The notes: generated by a model from the letters alone, not told the origin. Positions 2,188 through 62,637 are shown, numbered from the stretch's first letter. The stretch: DNA of 64,000 bases from an uncultured Actinomycetes bacterium (GCA_963717155.1 OY970326.1:1393897-1457896); one strand, 5' to 3'. Numbers and translations: made by a program.

Positions 2188-2884
2188 GGTCCGGCTCGCG
2201 CGCCTCGAGCTGGTGCTTCTTCGCGTGCTCGTGGCGGCGCCAGAGTCCGAGCGCGACGACGGCGGCACCGATCAGGACGATCACGCCGCCGATCCCGAGC
2301 ACCCTCTCGACGACGTGGATCGAGTTGCCGAAGAAGTGGCCGACCAGCACGATCGACGTCGCCCAGCAGATGCCGCCTGCCGCGTTCCACAACGCGAACC
2401 TCCACCACGACATGTGCACCATCCCTGCGATCCACGCTCCGAAGATGCGCAGGCCGGGGATCCAGCGGGCGAGGAAGACGGTGATGCCGCCCCTCCGCGC
2501 GAAGTAGTCCTCGCCCCAGGCGAGCGAGCGCTCGATGCCGCCGATGTGCGCGAGTCGCATCACGAGCGGCCGACCACCGAAGCGGCCGATCGCGTAGCCG
2601 ACGTTGTCTCCGAGGATCGCCGCGGTCGCACCGACGACGATCGCCCAGAACACGTCGATGCGACCCGTCGCCGATGCGACGCCCGCGAGCAGGAGCGACG
2701 TCTCGCCCGGGAGCGGGAGTCCGGCCGTCTCGAGGAAGACCGGCACGAAGATCACCGCGTAGCCGTACTCGGCGTACAGGTCGAGCACGCGGTTGAGACT
2801 GATCGTCGGCTCGTATCGTCGCCACACCAGGTAGGCGGCGACCGCGGTGAGGACGACCCCGACCAGGATCGCGACCGTGCGCAT
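2171..2884 (-). CDS. DedA family membrane protein
   Basis: Track ORF 2171..2956(-). The internal Met (MRTVAILVGVVL) avoids overlap with the divergent gene. VIFVPVFLETAGLPLPGETSLLLAG...LGDNVGYAIGRFGGRPLV is the DedA/SNARE-associated motif. Confidence 0.75.
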   Translation of the reverse strand: MRTVAILVGVVLTAVAAYLVWRRYEPTISLNRVLDLYAEYGYAVIFVPVFLETAGLPLPGETSLLLAGVASATGRIDVFWAIVVGATAAILGDNVGYAIGRFGGRPLVMRLAHIGGIERSLAWGEDYFARRGGITVFLARWIPGLRIFGAWIAGMVHMSWWRFALWNAAGGICWATSIVLVGHFFGNSIHVVERVLGIGGVIVLIGAAVVALGLWRRHEHAKKHQLEAREPDLTPEP

Positions 2885-2936
2885 CGAGAGGCGTCGCGTG
2901 GCGCGATTCGGCCAGTTCACTCGCGACCACCGTAGC

Positions 2937-4100
2937 ATGCGCCCCGTGGATGCCAACGACCTCTCCAGGCTCAGAGACGAGCTGCCCGCCGCCGAGACTG
3001 CGGCCTATCTGAACGCCGGAACCTTCGGCCCGTTGCCGCGCAGCACGTACGCGGTGCTCGCGGGCGAGCTGGGGCGCGAGCTCTGGCGCGGCCGCACTGG
3101 TACGAGCGCGTTCCAGCGCTACCAGGCCGCCGCCTCCGCGGCCCGCTCCGCGTTCGCGGAGGCGGTCGCAAGCCCGCCTGAACGCATCGCGCTGACCCAT
3201 TCGACGACCGGCGGAGTCAACCTCGCGCTCGGCGGGCTGGAGTGGCATGCCGGCGACGAGGTGGTGACGACCGACGCGGAGCATCCGGGTCTCGACGAGC
3301 CGCTCGACGAGCTCGCGCGCCGCCACGGTGTCGTCGTGCACCGGGCGCAGGTGCTCGGCGCCGACGATCCCGCGGCGCCGATCGAGGCCCTCGTCGGCGA
3401 GCGGACGCGGCTCATCGCCGTCTCGCACGTGCTCTGGGGCACCGGCCAGGTGCTGCCGCTGCCGCGCCTCGCGAGCGCCGCGAGGGCACGCGGCGCCCTG
3501 CTGCTTGCCGACGGCGCACAGAGCGTGGGGGCGATCGAGGTCGATCCGCTCACCGAGGGCGCCGACCTCTACACGATCTCCGGCCAGAAGTGGCTGCTCG
3601 GGCCGTCAGGCACGGGCGCGCTGTGGGTGCGAGAGGGTCTCGAGGAGCAGCTTGCGCTCGCCCAGCCCGGCTACCTGAGCCGTGACATGCGTTCCGAGGG
3701 GATGCCGCTCTGGCCCGGCGCGCGCCGCTTCGACGGCGCGTCGCTCGCCCCGAGCAGCATGCTCGGGTTGGTGGAGTCGATCCGCTTCCGGCGCGAAGAC
3801 GTCGGCTGGGAAGCGGGCTTCGAGCACGCGAGAGCGATGGCCAACCGTGCCCGGGAGATGCTGAGCGGCGTGCCGGGGGTGAAGCTCGAGACGCCCGCCG
3901 GGCCGCTGGCGACGCTCGTGACGTTCACGGTGGGCGACCTCGAGCCCGAGGCGATCAACGTGGCGCTCGAGGAGCGCGGCGTGCTGGCGCGCTGGCTGCC
4001 CAAGCCGAAGGTCGTGCGGGTGTCGGTCGGGTTCTGGACGGACGAGCGCGACCTCGAACGGTTGGCGGACGCGCTCGCAACGCTCGCAGAGGGCAGCTGA
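2937..4100 (+). CDS. class V aminotransferase / cysteine desulfurase-like PLP enzyme
   Basis: Track ORF 2847..4100, with a likely start at MRPVDAND (2937). Motifs are YLNAGTFGPLP, ADGAQSVGAIEVD and YTISGQKWLLGPSGTGALWV (PLP-lysine context). Confidence 0.75.
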   Translation: MRPVDANDLSRLRDELPAAETAAYLNAGTFGPLPRSTYAVLAGELGRELWRGRTGTSAFQRYQAAASAARSAFAEAVASPPERIALTHSTTGGVNLALGGLEWHAGDEVVTTDAEHPGLDEPLDELARRHGVVVHRAQVLGADDPAAPIEALVGERTRLIAVSHVLWGTGQVLPLPRLASAARARGALLLADGAQSVGAIEVDPLTEGADLYTISGQKWLLGPSGTGALWVREGLEEQLALAQPGYLSRDMRSEGMPLWPGARRFDGASLAPSSMLGLVESIRFRREDVGWEAGFEHARAMANRAREMLSGVPGVKLETPAGPLATLVTFTVGDLEPEAINVALEERGVLARWLPKPKVVRVSVGFWTDERDLERLADALATLAEGS

Positions 4101-4131
4101 TCTGCGACGCGGAAGTAGGGCGTGAAGCGAG

Positions 4132-4494
4132 GCGATCCTCGGACAAGACGCAGGTCAGGAGCGTGGTACTCGGGACCTAGCGTGGGTCCCGTAAGGCGCA
4201 GCGCGGACGTATTCGTCCCATCGAAACGGTGTTAGCGGCTAGGCCGGAAACGAAATAGTCGACCAAGATCCACAGGTCGCAGGTCCGGACCCTTCGAGCG
4301 CAACCTGTGATCCTTCGAACCCGCGCCATCTGCAACCGTGGCGCAGTCGTCTCAACCTGTGGTCTTCGACCTATTGCGTTTGCGGCCTAGCCGCTAACAC
4401 GGTTGCGACGGATCGAATACGTCCGCGCAGCGCCTTACGGGACCGCAGCTAGGTCCCGAGAACCACGCCCCCGACCCGGCTTTCCGAGGCTGGC
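4132..4494 (+). repeat. long-hairpin MITE-like intergenic repeat, copy A (363 bp)
   Basis: The ~110-nt left arm (CCTCGGACAAGACGCAGGTCAGGAGCGTGG...GTTAGCGGCTAGGCCG) is the reverse complement (~85 % by eye) of the right arm (CGGCCTAGCCGCTAAC...TTTCCGAGGCTGGC). The arms flank an asymmetric ~130-bp core with GATCCACAGGT/ACCTGTGRTC subrepeats. Homologous copies lie at 33506-34005 and 59778-60144. Confidence 0.85.
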
Positions 4495-5090
4495 TACCCC
4501 GGCACCCCCAGCTCGGTCGCGATCGGCCGCAGCGCCTCGATCACGACCATGATGTGCTCGTCGAGGTCGACGCCCAGCTCCTCGGCGCCCTCGATCACGT
4601 CGTCGCGATTGACACCGGACGCGAAGCTCTTCTGCTTCAGCTTCTTGCGCACCGACCTCGGCTCCAGCGTCGACAGGCCCTCCGGGCGCACGAGCGCACA
4701 CGCATGCACGAAGCCAGCCAGCTCGTCGCAGGCGAACAGGACGCGCTCGAGGTCGCTCTCTCGCGCCGCCACGTCCTGCAGGTGGTTCGCGTGCGACAGG
4801 ACCGCCCGGATGAACCACTCCGGGTAGCCGGCATCCCGCAGGTACGCAGCGCCGTCCTGGGGATGCTTGTCGAGGGTCGGATGGTGCTCGTAGTCGAAGT
4901 CGTGCAACAGGGCCACGCAGCCCCACGCGTCCTCGTCGGCGCCGAAGCGGCGTGCGTATGCGCGAACCGCAGCCTCGACCGCATAGGCGTGGCGGCGCAA
5001 CGCCTCGCTCTCGGTCCACTCGTGCAGCAACGAGAGCGCGGCGGCACGATCGCGCGCCAGCGCCTCGGGATCCCTCGCATGTGCTTCCAT
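4494..5090 (-). CDS. HD domain metal-dependent phosphohydrolase
   Basis: ORF of 198 aa. LLHDFDYEHHPTLDKHPQDGAAYLRDAGYPEWFIRAVLSHANH contains the H...HD...D pattern of the HD superfamily. Confidence 0.7.
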   Translation of the reverse strand: MEAHARDPEALARDRAAALSLLHEWTESEALRRHAYAVEAAVRAYARRFGADEDAWGCVALLHDFDYEHHPTLDKHPQDGAAYLRDAGYPEWFIRAVLSHANHLQDVAARESDLERVLFACDELAGFVHACALVRPEGLSTLEPRSVRKKLKQKSFASGVNRDDVIEGAEELGVDLDEHIMVVIEALRPIATELGVPG

Positions 5091-28888: not shown

Positions 28889-28929
28889 GCCGGCTCGTCG
28901 CCCGCCTCGGGATTGCGTTCCGCACGTGC

Positions 28930-31900
28930 GTGCTGGCACTATCCGCACAAGCAGGTTGGCGAGCGGCGAGAGGAGGGGTCACGGGCGACGGGGACGTCGA
29001 GCTCTCTGGGTCTTACCCCGGAACGGGGCCGGCGGCGCTCGCTCCGAGACGGCCCGCGACTGAAGCGCTAGCACGCCGCATCGGAGCGGTGCTGATGGTC
29101 GCGGCGGTGATCCTTCTCGGTCTTCCGATCCCAGCGCTCGCGGGGAACGGGATATGGACGCGCTCGACGAGCTGGTTCAACGGCTCTGTCGACGACGGTG
29201 TGAGCGCGTCCGTCGCGGGGCCGGACACCAGCGGGAACTCGCTGTTCGCGCTCAGCCTCGAAGGGAGCGGGGTGTGGACGACCACCGACTTCGGTGCGGA
29301 CTGGACGCCGCAGGAGAACGGCCCGATCGATCCGACTGCGGTGGCGGTCGCACCGAGCGATCCCAGCGTCCTGTACGAGGACGCCGATGCGAGCCCGAAC
29401 CCCGGCATCTTCGTTCGCTCGAGCGATTCGGGGTTGACCTGGCAACAGCAGACGCAGCCGTCGCCCGACCGGTTCTGCACCGCGAGTAAGCTCGAGGTCT
29501 CGCCGGTCGACCCTGACACGGTTGTCTACCTGTCGTTCATCTGCAACGCGATCTGGCGCTCGGCTGACGGGGGTGGGCACTGGACGTCCGTCTCAGTCCC
29601 GGCGGCCCAGGTGAACGACGTCGCGATCGACGCCGCAAGCGGGGCGCTGTATGCGGCGGCCGGCAATGGGCTCTACCGAAGCCCCTCGGGCAATGGGGGC
29701 GACTGGACTCCCTTTGCCGCGTTTGACGGTTGCTGGATGTTCGCGGTCCAGCTGTTCGCCGGGCCACCGTTCACGATCTACACGACAGGCGCGTGGCAGG
29801 GGCCTGGAAGCTGCACGATTCTCCAGGGGTCGGGAAGTGGGATCTGGCGCAGCGCCGACGGGGGTGCGAGCTTCGACGAGCTGCTGGACAGTCCTCAGGT
29901 CAGCTGGCAGACGCTCGCGATCGACCCTTCGCAGACGATCATCCTTGCGAGCAACAACGTCGCGCAGCTCGCGGCCAGCCAGGACGGCGGCTCGCACTTC
30001 ACGATCTCCTCGCCCTCGACAGTCGGCCTTGGACCTTTCGCCATCGACCCGCTCGATCCCGAAAATGTTCTCGCAGCGGCGTTTGCAGGATCGCCGAACC
30101 GCTTCGTCCAGTCGACCGATGGTGGCAGGACATGGTTCACACCACCTCGCGTCGATCCCGTCAGCATGCCGGCGACCGCGATCGCGATCGACCCCGGCCG
30201 CCCGGGCACGATCTTCGCGGCGATCCAAGGCGATGGGGCAGCGATCACGCGGGACGACGGCGCGAGCTGGCTACAGGCGACCGGGCTCGCGCCGCCATTC
30301 TGGACTCGTAGCGCCCTCAGCATCGCCCCCGACACCCGCGCGAGCCAGCGGGTGTATCTGGGCACCTACCAGGGCGTCTGGACGAGCGGCGACAACGGTG
30401 AGAGTTTCCAACCGAGTGTGCTCGACCACGGCTCGATCGACGCGCTCGCGGTCGACCCATCGCATCCTGGCACGGCCTACGCCGGCGCATACGACGGCGG
30501 CCTCTGGCGGACCGCCGACGGAGGTGCGACCTGGACACCAGCAACCGGAGGGCTCGCCGACGATGACGTCAACGCCCTCGCCGTCGATCCGTTCAACACG
30601 CAGATCGTGTATGTCGCGACGGCCGCGCACGGCGTCTGGAAGAGCGTCGACGGCGGGTCCAGCTGGAACCCGACTGGTCTGAGCAACGGCTTCGCCGATT
30701 CGCTCGCGATCGACCCGGCGACCCCTGGCACGCTGTACGCCGGAACGTGTCTCGACGCATCCACCAACATCCTTCGAAGCACGGACTCGGGTGCGACCTG
30801 GACGACGCGCGGCGTCGGGTTGCCGGCGCACTGCGTCAATGCGATCACCATCGATCCTGCCGCGCCGGACCTGATCTACGCTGGTTCTGGCGGTCTCGGC
30901 GTCTATGCGTCGCCAGACGCTGGCCTCGACTGGTATCCGCTGGATAACGACCTCGATCGCCTCGGCGGCACCGTCGTCGACTCGCTCGCAATGCCACCTG
31001 GAGGCGCCGAGTTGCACGCAGGGGGCCAGGGTGGAGAGCTGGACTACCGCTTCGCGACCGATGTCTGGAGCTCGATCACCAGCGGCGCCGCGTCGGTCGT
31101 ACAGGGCGGTGCCCTCACCTACACCGCCACCTTCGGGAACGACGGCCCTGACGATGCGACCAACGTCGTCGGCGTTCTCAAGCTCCCGGCTGGTCTTGCG
31201 GCCCCGCCTGTGTCATCCGATCTCGGGAGCTGCAGTGGCGGCGAGGTGGACACGTGCCGATTCGGAATCCTCTCGGCCGGTGAGGGACTCACCTTGACGG
31301 TCTCGCTACCCGCCCCGGAAACGCCTGGCGCGCTCGTTGCCCAGACGAGCATCACCAACGATCGCGACGACCTCGCGAGCCTCGACGATACCGACACGGC
31401 AACGGTCACGGTAACGGCGTCGCTCGCCCCTAACGGGAAGCCAGACACCGTCGCGCCGAACGGCCTGAGTCTCGTCGGGAGCGGAAAGCAGGACTCCCTG
31501 TCCGCGCCATTCCAGCGCGGGCGCACGGTCACGCTCCGCTGGAGTGGACTCGACGCCTCCGGGATCACGAGCTTCGACCTGCGCACCCGGACCGGCACGG
31601 CGTCTCGCGCACTCGGGTCGCCGACGCTTTGGCTGAGCGCGACCACTGGCGCGCAGGCGACCTATACGGCGAAGCCGGGAACGACGGTCTGTTTCGGCTT
31701 GCGTGCCCGTGACGCTGCCGGCAACACGTCGGACTGGACGTCGTACCGCTGTACCGCCTTCCCACTCGCCGCCGGCGCCCTCGTCCACAGCCGCGGCTGG
31801 AGCACGAGGGGATCGCGGATCGCCACCGATCGGGCTGGCGCCACACTTCAGCTGGGAGGCGTTCGCGCCAGGCGCATCGCGCTGATCGCTGACACGTGCC

Positions 31901-32094
31901 CGGCGTGTGGTGAGGTCAGGATCACCCTTGGGAAGAAGCTGATCGGAACCGCCAACCTCGTCTCGCACCATGCCGCGCGGTCCCGTTTGGTCGTGTTCGC
32001 CCCGCTTCCCGCGGTGCGGGCAGGCAGGCTCGTGCTCACAGCGACGACCTCGCGGCCGGTGAACATCGCTGCAATCGGAATCAGCGCCGCCTGA
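28930..32094 (+). CDS. large secreted Asp-box (BNR) repeat beta-propeller protein with DUF11-like and Ig/Fn3-like C-terminal domains
   Basis: Intact 1054-aa ORF with an uncertain start. There is a signal-like segment RRIGAVLMVAAVILLGLPIPALA and about 13 S/T-x-D-x-G-x-(T/S)-W/F boxes (SSDSGLTW, SADGGGHW, STDGGRTW, TADGGATW, SVDGGSSW, STDSGATW and others). Further downstream come LTYTATFGNDGPDDATNVV and ARDAAGNTSDW. Confidence 0.8.
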   Translation: MLALSAQAGWRAARGGVTGDGDVELSGSYPGTGPAALAPRRPATEALARRIGAVLMVAAVILLGLPIPALAGNGIWTRSTSWFNGSVDDGVSASVAGPDTSGNSLFALSLEGSGVWTTTDFGADWTPQENGPIDPTAVAVAPSDPSVLYEDADASPNPGIFVRSSDSGLTWQQQTQPSPDRFCTASKLEVSPVDPDTVVYLSFICNAIWRSADGGGHWTSVSVPAAQVNDVAIDAASGALYAAAGNGLYRSPSGNGGDWTPFAAFDGCWMFAVQLFAGPPFTIYTTGAWQGPGSCTILQGSGSGIWRSADGGASFDELLDSPQVSWQTLAIDPSQTIILASNNVAQLAASQDGGSHFTISSPSTVGLGPFAIDPLDPENVLAAAFAGSPNRFVQSTDGGRTWFTPPRVDPVSMPATAIAIDPGRPGTIFAAIQGDGAAITRDDGASWLQATGLAPPFWTRSALSIAPDTRASQRVYLGTYQGVWTSGDNGESFQPSVLDHGSIDALAVDPSHPGTAYAGAYDGGLWRTADGGATWTPATGGLADDDVNALAVDPFNTQIVYVATAAHGVWKSVDGGSSWNPTGLSNGFADSLAIDPATPGTLYAGTCLDASTNILRSTDSGATWTTRGVGLPAHCVNAITIDPAAPDLIYAGSGGLGVYASPDAGLDWYPLDNDLDRLGGTVVDSLAMPPGGAELHAGGQGGELDYRFATDVWSSITSGAASVVQGGALTYTATFGNDGPDDATNVVGVLKLPAGLAAPPVSSDLGSCSGGEVDTCRFGILSAGEGLTLTVSLPAPETPGALVAQTSITNDRDDLASLDDTDTATVTVTASLAPNGKPDTVAPNGLSLVGSGKQDSLSAPFQRGRTVTLRWSGLDASGITSFDLRTRTGTASRALGSPTLWLSATTGAQATYTAKPGTTVCFGLRARDAAGNTSDWTSYRCTAFPLAAGALVHSRGWSTRGSRIATDRAGATLQLGGVRARRIALIADTCPACGEVRITLGKKLIGTANLVSHHAARSRLVVFAPLPAVRAGRLVLTATTSRPVNIAAIGISAA

Positions 32095-32151
32095 GGGTCG
32101 GCTCGCACGCCCGCAACCCGAAGGGCGCTCCCCGGGCAGTACGATGCAGAC

Positions 32152-33268
32152 ATGGCCAGCGAGCGACGCATCGTGGTCGGAGGCGTGCCGATCGGGGGCG
32201 GGTCCCCCGTGACGGTGCAGTCGATGACCACCACCAAGACGCACGACGTCGAGGCGACGATGGCGCAGATCGACCGGCTGGTCGAGGCAGGCGTCGACAT
32301 CGTCCGCGTCGCCGTCCCGGGGATTCCGGACGCGGACGCGCTGCCCGAGCTCGTCGAGCGCACGCCCGTGCCGGTGATCGCCGACATCCACTTCAACGCC
32401 TCGCTCGCGCTGCGCGCGATCGACGCAGGCGTCGCTGCCGTGCGGATCAACCCCGGCAACATCGGCGGCCCCGACAAGGTCGAGCAGGTCGTGCGGCGCG
32501 CCCAGGAGCGCGGCACGCCGATGCGGATCGGCGCGAACTCCGGCTCACTGCCGGAGCACCTGCGCTGGACCGCGACGGCGGATCCTTCCGGCGCGCTCGT
32601 CCGGGCGGCCATGGAGGAGGTCGAGATCCTCGAGCGGCTCGAGTTCCGCGAGTTCAAGATCTCGGTCAAGTCGAGCTCGCGTGCCGGTCATGATCGAGGC
32701 CTACCGCCGCCTGTCGGAGCTCGTGCCGTACCCGCTCCACCTCGGCGTGACCGAGGCCGGGACCGCGTTCACGGGCACCGTCAAGAGCGCCGTCGGCATC
32801 GGCTCGCTGCTCGCGTCGGGCATCGGCGACACGATTCGCGTGTCGCTCTCGACGGACCCCGTCGAGGAGGTCAAGGCGGGCTACGCGATCCTCAAGGCGC
32901 TCGGCCTGCGCAAGCAGGGTCCCGAGCTCATCGCCTGCCCGTCGTGCGGGCGGACGAACGTCGAGGTGCACGAGCTCGCCGAGCAGGTCGAGGCCCGTCT
33001 CGGGCAGTACGCCGAGCACTTCGAGGTCGCGGTCATGGGGTGCGCGGTGAACGGTCCCGGCGAGGCAGGGGATGCCGACTTCGGGATCGCTGGAGGTCGG
33101 GACGCGGGCTTCATCTACGCGCACGGCGCGGTGCTCCGGAAGGTCGACCAGGCCGTGCTCGTCGACGAGCTGTTCGGCGAGATCGACGCCTGGATCGCCG
33201 CCGGCATGCCTCGGCCCGAGCGCGGGACGCGGAAGCGCGATCTCACGCTGCCGGTCGTGACGCTCTAA
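32152..33268 (+). CDS. ispG: 4-hydroxy-3-methylbut-2-en-1-yl diphosphate synthase (one frameshift near 32680)
   Basis: VTVQSMTTTKTHDVEATMAQIDRLVEAGVDIVRVAV...IADIHF...RINPGNIG is followed in the next frame by VPVMIEAYRRLSELVPYPLHLGVTEAG...CPSCGRT...VAVMGCAVNGPGEA. Confidence 0.9.
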
Positions 33269-33277
33269 GCTCGCCCG

Positions 33278-33457
33278 ATGCGTCCAATCCGGAGTCTGAT
33301 GGTGTTCGCCGCGGGTGTGACCGCGGCGACGCCGCGTGGTCGAGCAGCCGTGAAGCGCGCGATCGGCGCGGCGCGCAAGGCCCGCGCGAAGCACCACACG
33401 TGGCACGAGGTGCCGCCGCCGGATGGGGTTCCCGAGCGCGTTCCGCCGCGGGACTGA
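33278..33457 (+). CDS. possible small protein (59 aa, hydrophobic N-terminus, basic middle)
   Basis: ATG ORF just below the track cutoff: MRPIRSLMVFAAGVTAATPRGRAAVKRAIGAARKARAKHHTWHEV... GC3 is mostly high. I recognise no homology. Confidence 0.2.
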   Translation: MRPIRSLMVFAAGVTAATPRGRAAVKRAIGAARKARAKHHTWHEVPPPDGVPERVPPRD

Positions 33458-33505
33458 GGGCGAGCTGAAGCCGCGAGCGCGCTGCGGAGGCCGGGCGTGG
33501 GACAT

Positions 33506-34005
33506 GCCATCCTCGGACAAGGCGCAGGTGGGGAGCGTGGCTCTCGGAACCTAGCCGCGGTCCCGTAAGGCGCTGCGCGGACGTATTCGATCCGTCGAAA
33601 TGGTGTTCGCGGTTAGACCGCGAACGCAATCGGGCGAAGATCACAGGTTGAGACGAGTGCGCGACGGAGGCAGGTGGCGAGGGTTCGAAGGATCACGGGT
33701 CGCGCTCGAAGGGTTCGGACCCTCGACCTGTGGATCTTGGTCGACTATTTCGTTTGCGGCCTATCCGCGATCACGGTTGCGATGGGACGAATACGTCCGC
33801 GCTGCGCTTCACGGGACCGTCGATAGGTTCCGAGAGCCACGCTCCCGACCTGCGTCTTTTCTGAGGCTGGCATGTGGCCTATGTTCGTTGCGGCCTATCC
33901 GCGATCACGGTTGCGATGGGACGAATACGTCCGCGCTGCGCTTCACGGGACCGTCGCGAGGTTCCGAGAGCCACGCTCTTGACCTGCGTCTTTTCCGAGG
34001 CTGGC
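33506..34005 (-). repeat. long-hairpin MITE-like repeat, copy B (inverted relative to A and C; full unit 33506-33871 plus a tandemly duplicated arm 33872-34005)
   Basis: It has the same termini (GCCATCCTCGGACAAGGCGCAGGT... / ...TTCTGAGGCTGGC). Its core is the reverse complement of the copy A core. The ~127-bp segment GCGGCCTATCCGCGATCACGGTTGCGATGGGACGAATACGTCC...CCGAGGCTGGC occurs twice in tandem. Confidence 0.85.
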
Positions 34006-34047
34006 AATGACCCCTACGACCTGTTGCCGGGTCGCGCTCGCGCATCG

Positions 34048-34079: not shown

Positions 34080-37000
34080 TTGCCCGTGGCCGACCCCGCC
34101 TACGTTCACCTTCACGTCCACTCCGAGTACTCGGTGCTCGACGGCGCCTGTCGGATCCCCCAGCTCGTGCAGCGCGCCGCCGATCTCGGCATGCCCGCCG
34201 TGGGGCTCACCGACCACGGCTCGATGGCCGGGGCGGTCGAGCTCTACAAGGCTGCGGGGAAGGTCGGGATCAAGCCGCTGCTCGGCTGCGAGGTGTACGT
34301 CGTCCCCGACCGGCGCGAGCGCCACCGCCACGAGGGCGAGCGGTCCTGGAGCCACCTGACGCTGCTCGCCGAGACGACGGCCGGCTACCACAACCTCGTC
34401 AAGCTGTGCACGCTCGGGTTCCTCGAGGGCTACTACTACAAGCCGCGCGTCGACTACGAGCTGCTCGAGCGCTACGCCGACGGGCTGATCTGCCTGTCCG
34501 GGTGCATGGCCGGGGTCACCTGCCAGGCGCTGGCTCGCGGCGACGAGCCGCGCGGCGCGCGCCGAGCTCGACCGCCTCGTGTCGATCTTCGGACGCGACG
34601 ACGTCTACGTCGAGCTGCAGGACGCCGGCATGGCCGAGCACGCCGAGATCAACCCGGGGCTCCTGCGAATCGCCGCCGACGCCGGCCTCCCGGTCGTCGG
34701 CACCGGCGACGTGCACTACCTGCACGCCGAGGACGCCGGGCCGCACGACGCGCTCCTCTGCATCCAGACGAACGCGCTCCTCGCCGACCAGAACCGCTTC
34801 CGCTTCAAGACGAACGAGTTCTACTTCAAGACCCCTGCCGAGATGCAGGCGCTGATGGCGCGCTGGGGCGACAACCTGCTCGCGCCGACGGTCGAGATCG
34901 CCGAGCGCTGCAACGTCGAGCTCGAGCTCGGGGCGCTGCGGCTCCCGCGCTTCGACGAGGCCGAGGGCGACAGCTTCGGCATGCTCCGCCGTCTCTGCGA
35001 GGAGGGGCTTGCACGCCGCTACTCGCACGTCGACGACGCGATCCGGGCGCGGCTCGAGTTCGAGCTGCAGACGATCAGCGAGATGGGCTTCGCCGACTAC
35101 TTCCTGATCGTCTGGGACTTCGTGCGGTTCGCCAAGCAGAACGGCGTCACGGTCGGTCCGGGGCGCGGATCGGCTGCTGGCTCGCTCGTCGCGTACTGCC
35201 TGCAGATCACCGATCTCGATCCCGATCGCGAACGACCTGCTGTTCGAGCGCTTCCTGAACCCGGGCCGCAAGTCGATGCCCGACATCGACATCGACTTCT
35301 CGGTGCAGGGCCGCGAGCGCGTCTTCGCGTACGTCACCGAGAAGTACGGGCGCGATCGCGTCGCGCAGATCATCACGTTCTCGAAGCTGCAGGCGAAGGC
35401 CTCCGTGCGCGACGCGGGACGCGTGATGGGCATGCCCTACGGCGTCGTCGACCGCATCGCGAAGCTCATCCCCGAGGGTCCGAAGGTCAACTTCGCCGAC
35501 TGCCTCAAGCCGGGCCAGGAGCTCGCGAAGGCCTGCGACGAGGACGAGGCCGCCCGCCAGATCGTCGAGATCGCGCGGCCGCTCGAGGGGCTGACGCGGG
35601 CCGACTCGATCCACGCAGCCGGCGTCGTGATCGGCGACCGCCCGCTGATGGAGTACCTGCCGCTGCAGCAGAAGGGTGCGGGCGAGGCCGTCGTCACGCA
35701 GTTCACGATGGGCGACGTCGAGGCGCTCGGCCTCCTCAAGATGGACTTCCTCGGCCTGCGCAACCTCGACGTGATCGACGAGGCCGTCCGCATCGTCCGC
35801 GAGTCGGCCGGCGTCGACCTCGGCGACCTGTCCGACCTGCCGCTGGACGATGCCCGCACCTACGAGATGCTCGCTCGCGCCGACACGCTGGGGGTCTTCC
35901 AGTTCGAGTCGTCGGGCATGCGCGACGCGTTGCGCGCGGTCAAGCCGACCTGCTTCGACGACCTCGTCGCGCTCGTGGCGCTGTACCGCCCGGGTCCGAT
36001 GCAGAACATCCCGATGTACGCACGGCGCAAGAACGGGCAGGAGGAGACGACGTACCTGCATCCCAAGCTCGAGCCGATCCTCGGCTCGACGATGGGCATC
36101 ACGGTGTACCAGGAGCAGTCGATGCAGATCGCCAAGGATCTCGGGGGCTTCTCGCCCGCCGAGGCCGACGATCTGCGCAAGGCGATCGGCAAGAAGATCC
36201 GCTCGCTGATGGCATCGCTCGAGACGAAGTTCCTCGAGGGCTGCGTCGCGAACGGCATCTCGAGCGAGGTCGCCCGCAGCCTGTGGGACGACAACGAGCG
36301 CTCGGCCGACTACTCGTTCAACAAGGCGCACTCCGCCTGCTACGCGCTCATCGCGTACCGCACGGCCTACCTGAAGGCGAACTACCCCGAGCCCTACATG
36401 GCCGCGCTGATCTCCTCGGTGATGCAGACCAAGGACAAGGTGCCGTTCTACGTCGCCGAGTGCGCGGACATGGGCATCGAGGTGCTGCCGCCCGACGTCA
36501 ACACGTCGGGCTCCGACTTCGTCGTGGTCGACGGGAAGATCCGCTTCGGCCTGACCGCGGTCAAGGGCGTGGGGGAGGGCGCGGTGCGCGCGATCGTGAC
36601 GGCGCGCGAGGAAGGCGGCGCGTTCACCTCGGTCTGGGACATGTGCGAGCGGGTCGACGCGCAGGTGCTCAACAAGCGCGTGCTCGAGAGCCTGATCAAG
36701 TGCGGCGGGCTCGACTCGACCGGTGCGTCGCGCCGAGCGATGCTGGTGGCGTTCGAGACGGCGCTCGCGGCGGGCCAGAAGGCGCAGGCGGACGAGCAGC
36801 GGGGCCAGGGGTCGATCTTCGATCTCGGCGAGCCGGTCGAGGCGGGCGCTCCGTCGAGTCGCCACCACCCGCAGCTGCTCGAGGTCGAGTTCGATCGCCG
36901 GGAGCTGCTGGCGCTCGAGAAGGAGACGCTCGGCCTCTACCTCACCGAGCCATCCGCTCGCCGAGGTGCGCGACCAGCTGCGGCGCAAGGTCGATCTTCC

Positions 37001-37518
37001 GCTCGCCGAGCTCTCGTCGCGCAACGAGGGCGAGGTCGTGACCGTCGGCGGGATCGTCGCGAGCGTGCGCACGACGATGACCCGCAAGGGCGACCCGATG
37101 GCCTTCGTCCGCCTGGACGACGCCGTGTCGCAGGTGGAGGTCGTGGTCTTCAACTCGGCCTACGCCGCCTCGCGCGAGCATCTCTTCGAGGACCGCGTGC
37201 TCGTCGTGCGCGGGCGTGTCGACCGGCGCGAGGAGGGCGAGACGAAGGTCGTGGCGCTCGAGGTCACTCCCTTCGACGAGGTGCCGCTGACCGGCGAGGT
37301 ACGGGTGCGCGTCGACGCGCGCACGGCGCCCGCGTCGTTCGTCGACGGGCTCGGGCGTGCGATCCGCGACTTCCCGGGCAGCAATCCGGTCGTGGTCGAG
37401 ATGAGCACTGCGCGAGGGGCCGCGCAGGCTGCGCCTCGGGCCGGCCTACCGGGTGCGGCCGGCGCCCGACTTCTTCGCCGAGGTGCGGGTGCTCGGCGGC
37501 GAGGCGCAGCTCGTCTGA
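34080..37518 (+). CDS. dnaE: DNA polymerase III alpha subunit (four +1 frame changes near 34550, 35225, 36950 and 37410)
   Basis: The PHP domain ([25 protein letters not shown]) is in one frame. [48 protein letters not shown] is in the next. MPDIDIDF...[13 protein letters not shown]...FQFESSGM...YRPGPM...[11 protein letters not shown] is in a third, and the OB-fold region [14 protein letters not shown] in a fourth. Confidence 0.92.
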
Positions 37519-37593
37519 TGCGGGCTTCCTGCGACTCGTCGACCCGCTGACCGTTTTCGGGCGAGCATCCGCCACCGCTGCCACAATGGCCGG

Positions 37594-38373
37594 GTGAGCG
37601 GCCCGACCATCCTCGAGCTCGAGCTCGACCTCGACGCGTACGCAGGCCCCTTCGACCTGTTGCTCGCGCTGGTGCTGCGCGAGGAGATCGACCTCGTCGA
37701 GGTGCCGGTCGCCGAGATCGTGATCGAGTACATCGAGCGCCTCGCCGAGGTGGAGGAGCTCGATCTCGAGGCGGTGTCCGAGTTCCTGCTGCTCGTGGCC
37801 GCACTGTGCGAGGTCAAGGCTCGCCGGCTGCTCGGCGAGGGCGATAGCGACATCGAGGAGCAGGGCCCCGAGGAGGCTGCCGCCGAGCTCGCCGCCCGCC
37901 TCGCCGAGTACCAGCGCTTCCGTGCCGCCGCAGGCTGGCTCGGCGCGCGCCGAGAGGAGCTCGGCCGCCGCTTCTTCCGCACGGTTCGCGCACCGCTCGC
38001 CCCGAGACCGCTTCCCGCCGACCTGCCGGAGGAGCAGCCATCCGCGCTCGTCGAGGCGATCGTTCGCCTGCTCGAGCCACCGCAGCACCTCGACATCTCC
38101 GCCGTACGCGGGCGCAGCGTGCCGGTCGGCCCGTTCCTTCGCAGGTTCCGCGAGCTCCTGCGCTCGCGGGGGACGTTCCTGTTCGACGAGCAGGTCGAGG
38201 GGCTGTCGCGCGAGGAGCAGGCGGCCGCGTTCCTCGCACTGCTCGAGCTGTACAAGCGCGGCGAGCTGCGTGCCGGTCAGGCCGTGGCGTTCGGCCCGAT
38301 CCGGGTCGCGAGGACGGTCGGCCTGCTCGCTGCGGTCCCGGTTGCAGCCGAGGCCGAGCAGGCCGTCGCATGA
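37594..38373 (+). CDS. scpA: segregation and condensation protein A
   Basis: Intact ORF of 259 aa. LDAYAGPFDLLLALVLREEIDLVEVPVAEI is the ScpA N-terminal motif, and LALLELYKRGEL lies near the C-terminus. Confidence 0.85.
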   Translation: MSGPTILELELDLDAYAGPFDLLLALVLREEIDLVEVPVAEIVIEYIERLAEVEELDLEAVSEFLLLVAALCEVKARRLLGEGDSDIEEQGPEEAAAELAARLAEYQRFRAAAGWLGARREELGRRFFRTVRAPLAPRPLPADLPEEQPSALVEAIVRLLEPPQHLDISAVRGRSVPVGPFLRRFRELLRSRGTFLFDEQVEGLSREEQAAAFLALLELYKRGELRAGQAVAFGPIRVARTVGLLAAVPVAAEAEQAVA

Positions 38374-57998: not shown

Positions 57999-58674
57999 GT
58001 GGCCTGGCCTGAAGACCAGCTCGTGCTGCCGTCGATCCTCGCGTCGGACTTCGGCGCGTTCCGCGCGCAGGTGCGAGAGCTCCTCGACGCCGGGGCGCGA
58101 GCCTTCCACTGCGACGTGATGGACGGGCACTTCGTGCCACCGATCACGTTCGGGCCGGGCGTCGTCGCCTCGATCGCGGACCAGGTCCACGCCGTCGGCG
58201 GCGTGCTCGACGTGCATCTCATGATCGAACGGCCCGAGCGCCAGCTCGCCGATTTCGCGAAGGCCGGCGCCGACTCGTGCACGCTGCACGTCGAGGCCTG
58301 CCCGAACCTCCACCGTGCGATCGTGGAAGCCCACGAGCTCGGGATCCGGGCCGGCGTGACCCTGAACCCCGCGACGTCGCTCTCGGGGATCGCCGACGCG
58401 ATCCGGTATGCCGACCACGTGCTCTGCATGTCGGTCGATCCGGGCTGGGGTGGCCAGGTCTTCATCGAGGAGTCGCTCGAGCGTCTCCGCGAGCTGCGGG
58501 TGCGCCTGCTTCCCGGCATGGGGCTCGAGGTCGACGGAGGCGTCGGGCCGAACAACGCGGGCCAGTGCGCCGACTGCCGGCGCCAACCTGATCGTCGCGG
58601 GCTCGGCGATCTACGGCCAGCCGTCACCAGGAGACGCCTACCGCGCGATCGTCGCGGCCGCCGGCTTCGCATGA
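57999..58674 (+). CDS. rpe: ribulose-phosphate 3-epimerase (one frameshift near 58575)
   Basis: LPSILASDF, FHCDVMDGHFVPPITFG, LDVHLM, LCMSVDPGWGGQ and LEVDGGV are followed in the neighbouring frame by GANLIVAGSAIY. Confidence 0.87.
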
Positions 58675-59738
58675 CGGGCGACGACGCCCGCTTCCTCGAG
58701 CGAACGCTCGAGCTCGCCGAGCGTGGCCGGTTCACGGCGAGCCCGAACCCCGTCGTCGGATGCGTGATCGTCCGCGACGGCGAGGTGCTCGGCGAGGGGT
58801 GGCACGTCCGTCCCGGCGAGCGCCACGCGGAGACGAACGCGTTGCTGGCCTGCACCGCAGGAGCGCACGGTGCGACCGCGTACGTGTCGCTCGAGCCCTG
58901 CTCGCACCACGGTCGTCAACCGCCGTGTGCCGACGCGCTGATCGAGGCCGGGATCGCACGGGTCGTCAGCGCGGCGGGCGATCCGTCGGCGAAGGTCGGC
59001 GGGAAGGGCTTCGAGCGCCTGCGCGCCGCGCGCGTCGAGGTCGAGGTCGCGACCGGCGACCTGGAGCGGCGCGCTCGGCGTCAGAACGCTGCGTTTCGCA
59101 CGCACACCGTCCACGGGCGACCCTTCGTGCTGCTCAAGCTCGCCGCGTCGCTCGACGGGCGCACCGCAACGGCGGCGGGCGAGAGCCGCTGGATCTCGTC
59201 GCCCGAGAGCCGCCAGCTCGTCCACGACTGGCGAGCCTCGATGGACGCAGTGGCGGTGGGCAGCGGGACGGCGCTCGCGGACGATCCGGGTCTCGACGCG
59301 CGCGACCTGGAGCCCCCGGCCGAGCGCCAGCCGCTGCGCGTCGTGTTCGACCGTCGCGGACGGTTGCGCCAGGGACTCAAGCTTGCGACGTCAGGGACGT
59401 TGAGGGTGGCGCCGGCGGGCGCACCGCCGCCGCCGGCCGGCGTCGAGCGCCTCGATGCGAACACCCCCGACGAAGCGCTGCGCGCGCTCGGCGAGCGGGG
59501 CGTGACGTCGCTGCTGGTCGAGGGGGGCGCCGAGCTCGCGGCCGGGCTGCTGCGAGCCGGAGTGGTGGACTCGATCGCGCTCTTCGTGGCGCCGATGATG
59601 CTCGGCGGCGACGGGCGGGCGATGCTCGGGCGACTCGGGATCGAGGCGCTCGCGGACGCGCCGAGACTGCGCGACCTGCGAGCGCGCCCCGTGGGTCCGG
59701 ACCTGCTGGTCGAGGCGGAGCTGCGCGAGATCCCGTAA
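58671..59738 (+). CDS. ribD: bifunctional diaminohydroxyphosphoribosylaminopyrimidine deaminase / 5-amino-6-(5-phosphoribosylamino)uracil reductase
   Basis: The ATG at 58671 overlaps the rpe stop. Motifs are NPVVGCVIV, HAETNAL, YVSLEPCSHHGRQPPC (deaminase zinc motif), KLAASLDGR and LLVEGGAELA. Confidence 0.9.
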   Translation: MTGDDARFLERTLELAERGRFTASPNPVVGCVIVRDGEVLGEGWHVRPGERHAETNALLACTAGAHGATAYVSLEPCSHHGRQPPCADALIEAGIARVVSAAGDPSAKVGGKGFERLRAARVEVEVATGDLERRARRQNAAFRTHTVHGRPFVLLKLAASLDGRTATAAGESRWISSPESRQLVHDWRASMDAVAVGSGTALADDPGLDARDLEPPAERQPLRVVFDRRGRLRQGLKLATSGTLRVAPAGAPPPPAGVERLDANTPDEALRALGERGVTSLLVEGGAELAAGLLRAGVVDSIALFVAPMMLGGDGRAMLGRLGIEALADAPRLRDLRARPVGPDLLVEAELREIP

Positions 59739-59777
59739 GGCACGAGCGCGACCCGGAGACGGGTCGTGGGGCCAGAA

Positions 59778-60144
59778 GCCGGTCCTCGGAAAAGACGCAG
59801 GTCGGGAGCGTGGTTCTCGGGACCTGACGTGGGTCCCGTAAGGCGCTACGCAGGCGTATTCGATCCGTCGCAACCGTGTTAGCGGTTAGGCCGCCCACGA
59901 AATAATCGACCAGGATCCACAGGTGGCGAGGGTTCGAAAGATCCACAGGTCGCGCGTTCGAAGCTTTCGTGCTCAACCTGGATTCCTTCGACCCCTCGCC
60001 ACCTGAGATCTTCGTGGCCCATATCTTGGCGGCCTGGCCGCTAACACCATTTCGACGGATCGAAGACGTCTGCGCTGCGCCGTACGGGACCATGGCCAGG
60101 TTCCGAGAACCACGCTCCCGACCTGCGTCTTTTCCGAGGATGGC
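59778..60144 (+). repeat. long-hairpin MITE-like repeat, copy C (367 bp), between ribD and ribE
   Basis: The left end ...CCTCGGAAAAGACGCAGGTCGGGAGCGTGGTTCTCGGGACC is an almost perfect reverse complement of the right end GGTTCCGAGAACCACGCTCCCGACCTGCGTCTTTTCCGAGG. The core has 2 forward and 2 reverse GATCCACAGGT-type subrepeats. It is homologous to copies A and B. Confidence 0.85.
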
Positions 60145-60163
60145 ACCGGCCTCACGCGCCTGG

Positions 60164-60192
60164 TCGACATGGCCGAGCGGGCCCTCTATAAG
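60164..60192 (+). promoter_or_regulatory. candidate promoter for ribE-ribBA-ribH (TCGACA-17 nt-TATAAG), predicting a leaderless ribE mRNA
   Basis: The -35 is 5/6 to TTGACA, the spacer is 17 nt, and the -10 is TATAAG. The -10 ends 8 nt before the ribE GTG at 60201. The intervening CTCCTCCC is not a Shine-Dalgarno sequence. Confidence 0.35.
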
Positions 60193-60200
60193 CTCCTCCC

Positions 60201-60785
60201 GTGTTCACAGGAATCGTCGAGGAGCTCGGCGAGGTCGTCGAGCTCTCGGTCACGACTGACGGGAGCCCGGCTGACGATCCGCGCACCCCGGCTCGCTCCA
60301 CTCGCCGGGATCGGCGACTCGATCAGCATCTCGGGCTGCTGCCTCACCGTCGTCTCGGCGACGACAGCCTGCTTCGCTTCGAGGCGGTGCCGGAGACCCT
60401 CGCTCGCACGTCGCTCGGGAAGCTCGCGGTCGGGAGCCGCGTCAACCTCGAGGACGCGCTTCGCGCCGGCGAGCCGTTCGGGGGCCATCTCGTGCAGGGG
60501 CACGTCGACGGCGTCGGCGAGATCTCCGAGATCCGGCCGGAGGGCGACGGGTACCGGATCGCGGTCCGCATCCCCGCCGATCTCTTGCGCTACGTCGCGG
60601 AGAAGGGCTCCGTCGCCGTCGCCGGGATCAGCCTGACAGTCGCAGCGCTGCGCGACGACGGATTCGAGGTCGCGCTGATCCCGCATACGTGGACATCGAC
60701 CACCGTCTCGGACCTGGAGGTAGGGGATCCGGTCAATCTCGAGGTCGACGTGATCGCCAAGTACGTCGAGCGCCTCCTCCCCTGA
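60201..60785 (+). CDS. ribE: riboflavin synthase (alpha chain); ORF looks intact but contains a compensated frameshift pair (about 60258 and 60358)
   Basis: [12 protein letters not shown] and the C-terminal [16 protein letters not shown]...[12 protein letters not shown]...IPHT are in frame. The canonical first-barrel motif RLTIRAP...[15 protein letters not shown] is encoded only in the +1 frame between the two junctions. Confidence 0.87.
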
Positions 60786-60801: not shown

Positions 60802-62119
60802 ATGACCGCCACGGTAACCCCCACTGGGAGCCCTCTTGGACACCGAACGTCAGCTCGCCGTTCTGCCCGATCGAAGAGGCCATCGCGGCCGTTCGCGCGC
60901 GGCGAGCTGGTCGTGGTCTGCGATTCGCCCGATCGTGAGAACGAGGGCGACCTCTGCATGGCTGCCGAGCTCGTGACGCCCGAGGCGATCAACTTCATGG
61001 CCACCCACGGCCGCGGGCTGATCTGCCTCACGCTGACGCCCGAACGGTGCGACGAGCTCGGGTTGCGGCTGATGGTCTCGCACAACCAGTCGACGTACGA
61101 GACCGCGTTCACCGTCTCGATCGAGGCCCGCGAGGGAATCGACACGGGCATCTCGGCCGGTGATCGCGCCCGCACCATCAAGGTCGCGGCGGATCCGACG
61201 ATGGGCGCGCGCGACATCGTGCAGCCCGGCCATGTCTTCCCGTTGCGAGCGCGTCCCGGCGGCACGCTCGAGCGCGCGGGGCAGACCGAGGGATCCGTCG
61301 ACCTCGCCCGCCTCGCCGGTCTCACCCCGGCCGGCGTGATCTGCGAGGTCATGAAGGACGACGGCACGATGGCCCGGGTTCCCGACCTCGTGGAGTTCTG
61401 CGAGCGCCACGAGCTCAAGCTGTGCTCGGTCGCAGACCTCATCGCGTACCGCCGCCGCACGGAGAAGCTCGTCGAGCGCCAGGCCGAGGTGCTGCTCCCG
61501 ACCGAGCATGGCGAGTTCCGCGCGGTCGGGCTTCCGCTCGAAGGTCGACAACAAGCACCATCTCGCACTGATCAAGGGCGACGTCGACGGCGTCCCCGAC
61601 GTGCTCGTGCGCGTGCACTCGGAGTGCGTGACGGGCGACGTGTTCGGGTCGCAGCGCTGCGACTGCGGCCCCCAGCTCGAGCAGGCGCTGCGCCAGATCG
61701 AGGCGGAGGGTCGCGGCGTGCTGCTGTACCTGGCACAGGAGGGCCGGGGGATCGGCCTGCTCAACAAGCTCCGCGCCTACGAGCTGCAGGATGGCGGCCT
61801 CGACACGGTCCAGGCCAACCTCGAGCTGGGGTTCCCGGCCGACCTGCGCGACTACGGCGTCGGAGCCCAGATCCTCACCGACCTCGGTCTGACGACCATC
61901 CGCCTGCTGACCAACAACCCGCGCAAGATCGTCGGACTCGAGGGCCACGGCCTGCACGTCACGGCGACGGTGCCGATCGAGGTGCAGCCGCAGGAGCACA
62001 ACCTCCGCTACCTGCGGGTCAAGCGCGACAAGCTCGGCCACGTCCTGCACCACCAGGATCTCCGCCTCGAGGACGCACCGCTGCAGCGCGAGCCGGAGCC
62101 CACACCGCACCCGACGTGA
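60802..62119 (+). CDS. ribBA: bifunctional 3,4-dihydroxy-2-butanone-4-phosphate synthase / GTP cyclohydrolase II (about 3 frameshifts near 60840, 60895 and 61545)
   Basis: [11 protein letters not shown] is in the neighbouring frame. [35 protein letters not shown] and [27 protein letters not shown] are in the frame of 60802. The GCH-II part [25 protein letters not shown]...[14 protein letters not shown] is in track ORF 61508..62119. Confidence 0.87.
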
Positions 62120-62637
62120 CCTCGGCGACGCACGGCGACGGAATCCTGGTTGCGCCGTCCGGGTCGTCGCTGGTCGCCGATGCCGACCTGCCAGCCGGCG
62201 CCCGCGTCGCGATCGTCGCGAGCCGGTACCACTCCGAGATCGTCCAGCGACTGCTCGACGGCGCGCTGCAGGCCGTGGCGGAGGCCGGCCTCGAGCCGGC
62301 GCGCGTCGACGTCCTGCCTGCCGCGGGCGCGTTCGAGCTCGGCCTGCTCGCCCGTGCGGCGGCGCTCTCGGGCCGCTACACCGCGGTCGCCGCGCTCGGC
62401 TGTGTGATCCGCGGCGACACCCCGCACTTCGAGTACGTGTGCTCCGAGGCGTCGCGGGCGATGACGCTCGCCGCGCTCGACAGCGGCGTGCCCGTCGGGT
62501 TCGGGCTGATCACCTGCGATACGCCCGAGCAGGCCTGGGAGCGCGCCGGGGGCGCCGCCGGCAACAAGGGTGCCGAGGCGACCGCCGCGGCGCTCGCGTC
62601 GGCGCGCACGCTCGCAGCGCTTCGCGGGGCGAGCTGA
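62116..62637 (+). CDS. ribH: 6,7-dimethyl-8-ribityllumazine synthase
   Basis: The GTG at 62116 overlaps the ribBA stop. Motifs are [47 protein letters not shown] and GFGLITCDT. Confidence 0.87.

Follow-up and report, generated by a model that had tools for sequence, protein, structure and literature searches.

The locus lies in a 64,000-nt stretch of DNA from an uncultured Actinomycetes bacterium, referred to here as the window. It fills the spacer between two convergent genes, a class-V aminotransferase gene (2847-4100, plus strand; Pfam Aminotran_5 on its orthologues) and an HD-domain hydrolase gene (4494-5090, minus strand). The original prediction described positions 4132-4494 as a ~365-bp hairpin repeat with homologous copies at 33506-34005 and 59778-60144, all three strictly intergenic and the first (copy A) touching the HD stop codon (CTA, 4494-4496). 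Sequence comparison, an arm motif and an arm profile HMM all agree with the assignment of the two further copies, and the intergenic placing of the three was confirmed. Copy A separates the convergent stop codons of the aminotransferase and HD genes. Copy B occupies the gap between ispG and dnaE, directly upstream of dnaE, and copy C lies within the riboflavin operon, between ribD (stop at 59738) and the riboflavin synthase gene ribE (60201-60785, plus strand). The copies lie 0-16 nt from stop codons.

The near end-to-end fold-back described for copy A holds: region 4125-4500 is predicted to form one single hairpin with an RNA minimum free energy (MFE) of -245.1 kcal/mol, compared to -144.6 +/- 5.7 kcal/mol for shuffled sequences (z = -17.7). 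For copy C, the corresponding MFE is -281.3 kcal/mol (z = -19.5). The inverted arms of copy A (4153-4258 and 4371-4476) measure 106 nt each, are 87 % complementary and are separated by 112 nt, in good agreement with the earlier estimate of ~110-nt arms matching at ~85 %. A palindrome had also been noted in each arm and is indeed present, although its true form is CGGGACC-N7-GGTCCCG (4172-4192 in the left arm) and not GGGACC-N6-GGTCCC.

A degenerate 32-nt arm motif matched the window seven times (0.00 expected), and the arm HMM returned the identical set of seven arms with E values of about 1e-38 to 1e-42. Copy A aligns with copy B in inverted orientation over 345 nt at 87 %, and the core of copy C is complementary to that of copy B over 68 nt at 81 %. 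Outside the arms we found ~30-35 nt of further homology, a module termed m0 (CGAGCGCGACCCGGAGGCAGGTCGTGGGG), which has its own small hairpin. It is found beside most copies and inside the core of copy B, and an m0 HMM detected it nowhere else in the window. Because the homology runs outwards through m0, the full elements are about 390-570 nt long, spanning 4104-4494 (A), 33474-34040 (B) and 59743-60172 (C). They show no coding signal, carry inverted repeats at their ends and are multi-copy, with seven arms in the window and members at five other loci.

An alignment of 21 arms revealed that the repeat unit is a modular arm of ~135-180 nt, with the order m0-m1-m2-m3-m4 from the outside inwards. 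Module m1 (TGCCATCCTCGGAAAAGACGCAGGTCGGGAGCGTGG) opens with TGCCA, and m2 is the CGGGACC-N7-GGTCCCG palindrome with a free loop. The best-conserved block is m3, GACGTATTCGATCCGTCG[A/C]AAC[G/C]GTG.T.GCGG.TAG.CCG, and m4 exists in three variants (m4a to m4c), inside which lies a core with frequent CACAGGT and TTCGAA motifs. The arms are inverted around this small core, with one to four tandem arms possible per side; where both sides are present, they form a near-palindrome of ~360-430 nt.

In copy A, a partial m0 (4104-4131, plus strand), identified by a weak m0-HMM match and by the aligned flanks, precedes a long-form left arm comprising m1 to m4a (4132-4270, plus strand; arm HMM E = 1.7e-42). 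The asymmetric core (4271-4360, unstranded) contains CACAGGT/TTCGAA sub-hairpins; reverse-complemented, it corresponds to the copy B core. The right arm (4361-4494, minus strand; E = 4.9e-38) has no m0 on its side, and its tip is shortened to TGGC as against the consensus TGGCA, the C at 4494 being the first base of the HD stop codon.

Copy B consists of one left and two right arms, with a 134-nt period repeated 2.0 times. It comprises an outer m0 (33474-33505, plus strand; m0 HMM E = 8e-4), a left arm with m1 to m4b (33506-33642, plus strand; E = 2.5e-40), a core (33643-33732, unstranded) that opens with an internal m0-like module (33654-33684; m0 HMM E = 0.0025), right arm 1 (33733-33871, minus strand; E = 3e-42), and right arm 2 (33871-34005, minus strand), a tandem duplicate recognised by the period and the arm HMM and 96 % identical to right arm 1 over m1-m3. 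An inverted m0 closes the copy (34008-34040, minus strand; E = 3e-5).

Copy C begins 4 nt past the ribD stop codon with an m0 (59743-59775, plus strand; m0 HMM E = 4.3e-5) whose small hairpin reads CGACCCG-GAGA-CGGGTCG. A left arm with m1 to m4a follows (59779-59917, plus strand; E = 3.9e-41), then a core that is nearly palindromic in itself (59918-60006, unstranded), and a right arm with m1 to m4c (60007-60144, minus strand; E = 3.3e-40). A degenerate outer module (60145-60172, minus strand) then gives way to the native ~27-nt ribD-ribE spacer, which is also found in relatives.

To catch spurious open reading frames (ORFs), we searched translations of the element against protein databases, because gene callers sometimes run ORFs through repeats. 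Among 1.84 billion representative proteins there were seven matches, of which only five were ORFs running through a family copy. In all, the protein search recovered the spurious ORFs P0001-P0004, P0006, P0008 and P0009, which provided the route to the loci L008-L011; a final search of proteins with those arm frames that were still left yielded no new members. Three loci (L008, L009 and L015) lie on ENA assembly ERZ25039457 contig_5618, with identities to the window of 95.6-96.3 % for L008 and ~94 % for L015, while L010 belongs to another ENA assembly and L011 to a JGI metagenome contig. The source genome (5.1 Mb) has at least five documented sites: copies A, B and C, and two copies visible as proteins only, through the spurious ORFs P0002 and P0006. 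Some 8 independent sites of the family are known in all.

These members bear on whether the repeat is an artefact, either a palindromic long-read mis-assembly or a purely local segmental duplication. The window assembly is indel-rich and probably derived from long reads, with frameshifts in ispG, dnaE, ribE and ribBA, which would suit such an origin. The artefact reading is nevertheless already contradicted, because independent assemblies carry the arm: it recurs in a short-read Logan contig (L001), in the JGI contig L011 and in the ENA loci L008-L010 and L015. The copies differ in their flanks, being placed at loci unrelated to one another, and an orthologous copy is 95 % conserved in another strain. 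An artefact is therefore hardly credible. The Logan contig (ERR10755946, 1237 nt) is 100 % identical to the window and ends 55 nt into an arm of copy A. A JGI contig that carries P0010 and the HD gene has 268 nt of uncalled sequence. Both contigs terminate within the arm or shortly beyond it, and the repeat seems to interrupt short-read assembly.

Comparison of the loci showed that arm number and arm form differ between strains of 94-96 % identity. A short-form arm, in which m0 is joined straight to m3 without m1 and m2, was found in L009, L011, L015 and P0006. At the ispG-dnaE gap, the L008 orthologue of copy B has three left and three right arms (periods of 149 nt x 1.9 and 134 nt x 2.9). 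L010 comprises four left arms (180-nt period x 3.6, 96 % matches) and one truncated right arm, and L011 two short left and two right arms. At the orthologue of window positions 4101-4493 (L015, 10599-10906), two tandem 143-nt short-form units are laid in the same orientation and form no hairpin; this array (143-nt period x 2.2) also contains small inverted fragments, and its flanks are 94 % identical to the window. Site A was either remodelled or colonised twice. Since same-orientation arrays fill site A in L015, the 365-bp hairpin is one configuration of a cluster, and its original description as the repeat unit has to be replaced by the modular arm. Identity is only 73-87 % among dispersed copies but 93-97 % among neighbours in tandem, which indicates an old dispersal followed by recent local amplification.

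Several short motifs recur within the modules. The heptamer CAGGT[CG]G is present in every module and in both orientations, often within CGCAGGTCGGGAGCG or CACAGGTGGCGAGGG (copies A, B and C; L008-L011), and TTCGAA occurs two to four times per core. These motifs might be bound by proteins, or they might be remnants of a short sub-repeat of greater age. Within m3 we observed an asymmetry between the two arms in copies A, B and C and in L008 and L010: one arm carries CGAAA[C/T]GG, forming a CCGT-CGAA-ACGG mini-hairpin, and the opposite arm carries CGCAACCG (e.g. 4224-4235 vs 4394-4405), resulting in two fixed mismatches in the long stem. In L011, m3 is of the CGCAACCG type on both sides. The asymmetry could be due to chance (n = 5).

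Outside these loci, the family left few traces. The original prediction could not match the element to a known Rfam family, and Rfam indeed gave no hit for the whole window at the gathering score and none for copy A at E <= 10. One degenerate arm pattern gave no match in 185,579 species-representative genomes, and neither this pattern nor a second one matched JGI metagenome contigs or IMG/VR. The second pattern recovers all seven window arms and 15 arms in L008-L011, so the zero matches reflect the content of the collections. Literature searches on Gaiellales or Thermoleophilia repeats and on bacterial foldback MITEs returned nothing relevant. The family does not hinge on any one assembly and is seldom met in public data. 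By RibD, the nearest genomes are Gaiellales/Actinomycetota MAGs (69-74 % amino-acid identity), and the best reading is that the family is lineage-restricted, its hosts being a narrow group of Gaiellales-like soil bacteria that are uncultured.

Empty sites, which had been suggested as a check on mobility, were found in two relatives (L012 and L014) and in three Gaiellales MAGs. In L012, where the HD protein is 87 % identical and gene order is kept, only 6 nt separate the two stop codons (TGA-tcgaga-CTA), compared to 393 nt in the window. In L014 (HD protein 89 % identical), the HD stop codon lies 9 nt from that of the convergent downstream gene, which is cut at the contig end. The m0 stretch of copy A (4104-4131) falls within the DNA missing from both sites. 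Similarly, ribD and ribE are 22-30 nt apart in the three MAGs vs 462 nt in the window, where the last ~27 nt 5' of the ribE start remain recognisable as native spacer. No arm-like sequence was detected in the ~115 kb of these other relatives that was covered. On these comparisons, the copies are insertions relative to the related species. We also considered the element as the source of the HD C-terminus and stop codon, and ruled this out: the C-terminus ...ELG(L/V)PG is conserved in element-free homologues down to 69 % identity and is thus native, and the element therefore adds no coding sequence.

The insertions and their ends allowed us to weigh a classical cut-and-paste MITE, i.e. an internally deleted derivative of a DDE IS with very long terminal inverted repeats (TIRs), whose parent IS resides elsewhere and whose tandem arms are secondary. 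The copies are small, non-coding and dispersed, relatives have empty sites, long inverted arms exist, and the termini are of the TG...CA type (m1 opens with TGCCA and the element closes with TGGCA), all as expected of a MITE. However, homology continues ~30-45 nt past TGCCA/TGGCA, through m0 and a GAACGCA motif present in some copies, and these sequences are consequently not the element boundary. We also considered m0 as an independent REP-like target sequence, which was ruled out, as m0 occurs only together with the element. The ends are ragged: the right end of copy A stops at TGGC on the stop codon, and those of L009 and L010 are truncated at other points. Direct repeats are missing from the flanks of copies A, B and C and of L010 and L011, and comparison of the filled HD/aminotransferase site with the empty ones, from relatives only ~80 % identical, revealed no duplicated spacer. 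Given the ragged ends and this ~80 % identity of the empty-site relatives, a short or eroded target-site duplication (TSD) may have existed.

Further observations fit a MITE poorly. Some sites hold same-orientation units only, and the copies, being just 73-87 % identical, give no sign of having multiplied in a recent burst. Plasmids and phages yielded no IS with similar ends, as blastn in distant mode with copy C returned no match in 72,556 plasmid records or in 50,697 from phages, and no IS was found in the regions covered of the window and the orthologous loci. We looked for a TSD, for sharp termini and for a unit of fixed size and found none of them, and a classical MITE is unlikely. Of the non-autonomous foldback element originally envisaged, the dispersed, non-coding and inserted repeat stands, but the hallmarks of a MITE do not.

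A different possibility is that the host selects the element, either as an RNA whose long hairpin serves as terminator, insulator or RNase III site, or as a protein-binding array made of the recurrent CAGGT[CG]G and dyad motifs, and that recombination copies it. The extreme stability of the predicted hairpins and the position of copies right behind stop codons, including between convergent genes and in the rib operon, speak for such a role, as does the heptamer shared by all modules. Against it, the two arms of one element are 74-87 % identical after reverse-complementing, and arms of different window elements 79-87 %; within-element identity is not above between-element identity, and there is therefore no compensatory stem maintenance. 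Conserved local structure in the single arm gave a weak signal only and was not retained: the Alifold consensus fold of 20 arms reaches -12.7 kcal/mol with a covariation term of -0.73 kcal/mol, and double changes occur in one of 22 pairs. With no compensation within elements and almost no single-arm covariation, the structured intergenic RNA put forward in the original prediction was not borne out.

The orthologous arms give a similar picture. The left arm of copy B is 95 % identical to its L008 orthologue, compared to 92 % at third codon positions; this lower divergence (5 % vs 8 %) favours selection to some extent, but suggests near-neutral arms under mild constraint at most. Besides, the cores of B and C are oppositely oriented although both lie between co-directional genes, so that orientation to transcription is not fixed. 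The site A hairpin is dispensable in a close relative (L015), related species do without the element at the same sites, and Rfam as well as promoter and terminator consensus sequences gave no match. From these alignments, the evidence says that host selection for the hairpin is absent, or weak at best, and a host-selected element is accordingly improbable. As a carrier of sigma-70-type promoters or intrinsic terminators the element was dropped, as neither consensus was found in it. An integron attC site, an invertible promoter, a CRISPR array, a retron and a tRNA-derived SINE were dropped on anatomy alone, because there is no integrase, recombinase or reverse transcriptase nearby, there are no spacers and Rfam gave no match.

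Among known systems, bacterial interspersed mosaic elements (BIMEs) consist of basic modules arranged head to tail, are extragenic, lack a TSD, differ strongly between strains and have been proposed to be amplified by RAYTs (PMC2817692). The term 'Actinobacteria' does not occur in that study (PMC2817692). REPINs are REP doublets that fold into hairpins and are mobilised by RAYT Y1 transposases. With BIMEs and REPINs, the family described here shares the extragenic position right after stop codons, a mosaic of modules, inverted hairpin doublets, head-to-tail amplification, strong variation in length and presence among strains and species, the lack of a TSD and a lineage-specific sequence. Their units, on the other hand, are imperfect palindromes of 20-40 nt, compared to ~135-180 nt here, and the 21-nt palindrome m2 is optional, being missing from short-form arms. 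Tandem arms keep the same orientation, whereas REPs alternate in BIMEs, and there is no consistent GTAG head, a GTAG-type head being found in some m0 copies only. RAYT/REP systems have been described mainly from Proteobacteria, and copy numbers of REP, BIME and REPIN sequences typically exceed 100 per genome. In the present case the host is an actinobacterium, and no RAYT (Y1 transposase) was found in the ~180 kb comprising the window and the family-bearing loci.

The Correia/NEMIS elements of Neisseria and the ERIC/IRU elements, which are co-transcribed with neighbouring genes, resemble the family in being small, non-coding, intergenic or operon-internal, folded back end to end and missing from empty sites in relatives. 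They differ in that the present elements have no TSD, no sharp termini, a variable number of arms and no parent IS that we could find. Their TIRs (26 bp in the Correia element) are also far shorter than the arms. Mycobacterial MIRUs similarly form tandem units of strain-variable number in operon spacers of an actinobacterium, but they measure 40-100 bp and have neither inverted arms nor long hairpins. By analogy only, the Drosophila Foldback (FB) transposons have long inverted arms of tandem sub-repeats whose number varies by arm and copy; these are eukaryotic, with far shorter sub-repeats and kilobase-long arms, and no relationship is implied.

Taken together, we consider it fairly probable that the family is a lineage-restricted, non-coding and non-autonomous palindromic mosaic repeat that colonises very short spacers in a Gaiellales-like soil actinobacterium. 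By analogy, it is best read as a selfish-type, fast-rearranging repeat whose behaviour would be nearest to that of BIME/REPIN clusters, with units 5-10 times larger. To spread, it would depend on an enzyme whose gene lies in another part of the genome. The absence of a transposase from the window, as originally stated, was borne out for the regions covered: none was found among eight ORFs run against Pfam (the seven clearest at 43.7-56.7 kb and a 1054-aa ORF at 28.9-32.1 kb), nor among the gene calls of the orthologous loci that correspond to 1-15 kb and 20-44 kb, all of which proved to be housekeeping or uncharacterised. A duplication-free mechanism acting on single-stranded or hairpin DNA (HUH/Y1, RAYT-like), as proposed for REP, BIME and REPIN sequences, would fit best. 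Arrays could then lengthen and shorten by slippage, unequal recombination or rolling-circle-type amplification. On read-through from ribD to ribE or from ispG to dnaE, a copy would form a long double-stranded RNA hairpin, at which RNase III cleavage or termination would be likely, and fold predictions make polarity or RNase III cleavage plausible whenever the hairpin is transcribed.

A less likely reading, which we put forward with considerable doubt, is that the family represents an undescribed prokaryotic foldback class, in which a unit of ~180 nt would be laid down both inverted and in tandem by a dedicated enzyme acting on single-stranded or hairpin DNA. Such 'giant REPINs' might depend, for example, on a new HUH/Y1 or another TSD-less transposase of uncultured Gaiellales, and would restructure spacers on the time-scale of strain divergence. 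A cognate enzyme, if real, would extend the REPIN/RAYT-type idea of a 'domesticated replicator' to a new phylum and to units of far greater size.

REP, BIME, REPIN and MITE sequences have been described chiefly in Proteobacteria and in a few Firmicutes. Thermoleophilia/Gaiellales are abundant but barely cultured soil bacteria, and to our knowledge almost nothing has been described about their intergenic palindromic repeats. The present family shows that genomes with native spacers of 6-30 nt tolerate near-palindromes of 400-600 nt, even in the riboflavin operon and before dnaE, and that such clusters are remodelled between strains of about 95 % identity. In practical terms, the arms cause spurious ORF calls (P0001-P0009) and could serve as strain-typing loci.

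Two side observations concern the surrounding genes. Frameshifts break ispG (32152-33468), dnaE (34080-37597), ribE (60169-60785) and ribBA/ribH (60802-62637), rpe and ribD are fused in one ORF (57999-59738), and gene calls are fragmented in the related ENA contigs as well; the split essential genes look like indel errors of a long-read assembly rather than pseudogenisation. Furthermore, a 3.2-kb stretch of the window (28893-32140), at which no flanking repeats were noticed, holds a single gene for a 1054-aa secreted-type protein with Sortilin-Vps10/BNR repeats and DUF11 (Pfam). The stretch has no counterpart in the relative of 94-96 % identity, in which rseP lies next to ispG (L008, 8396-8425).
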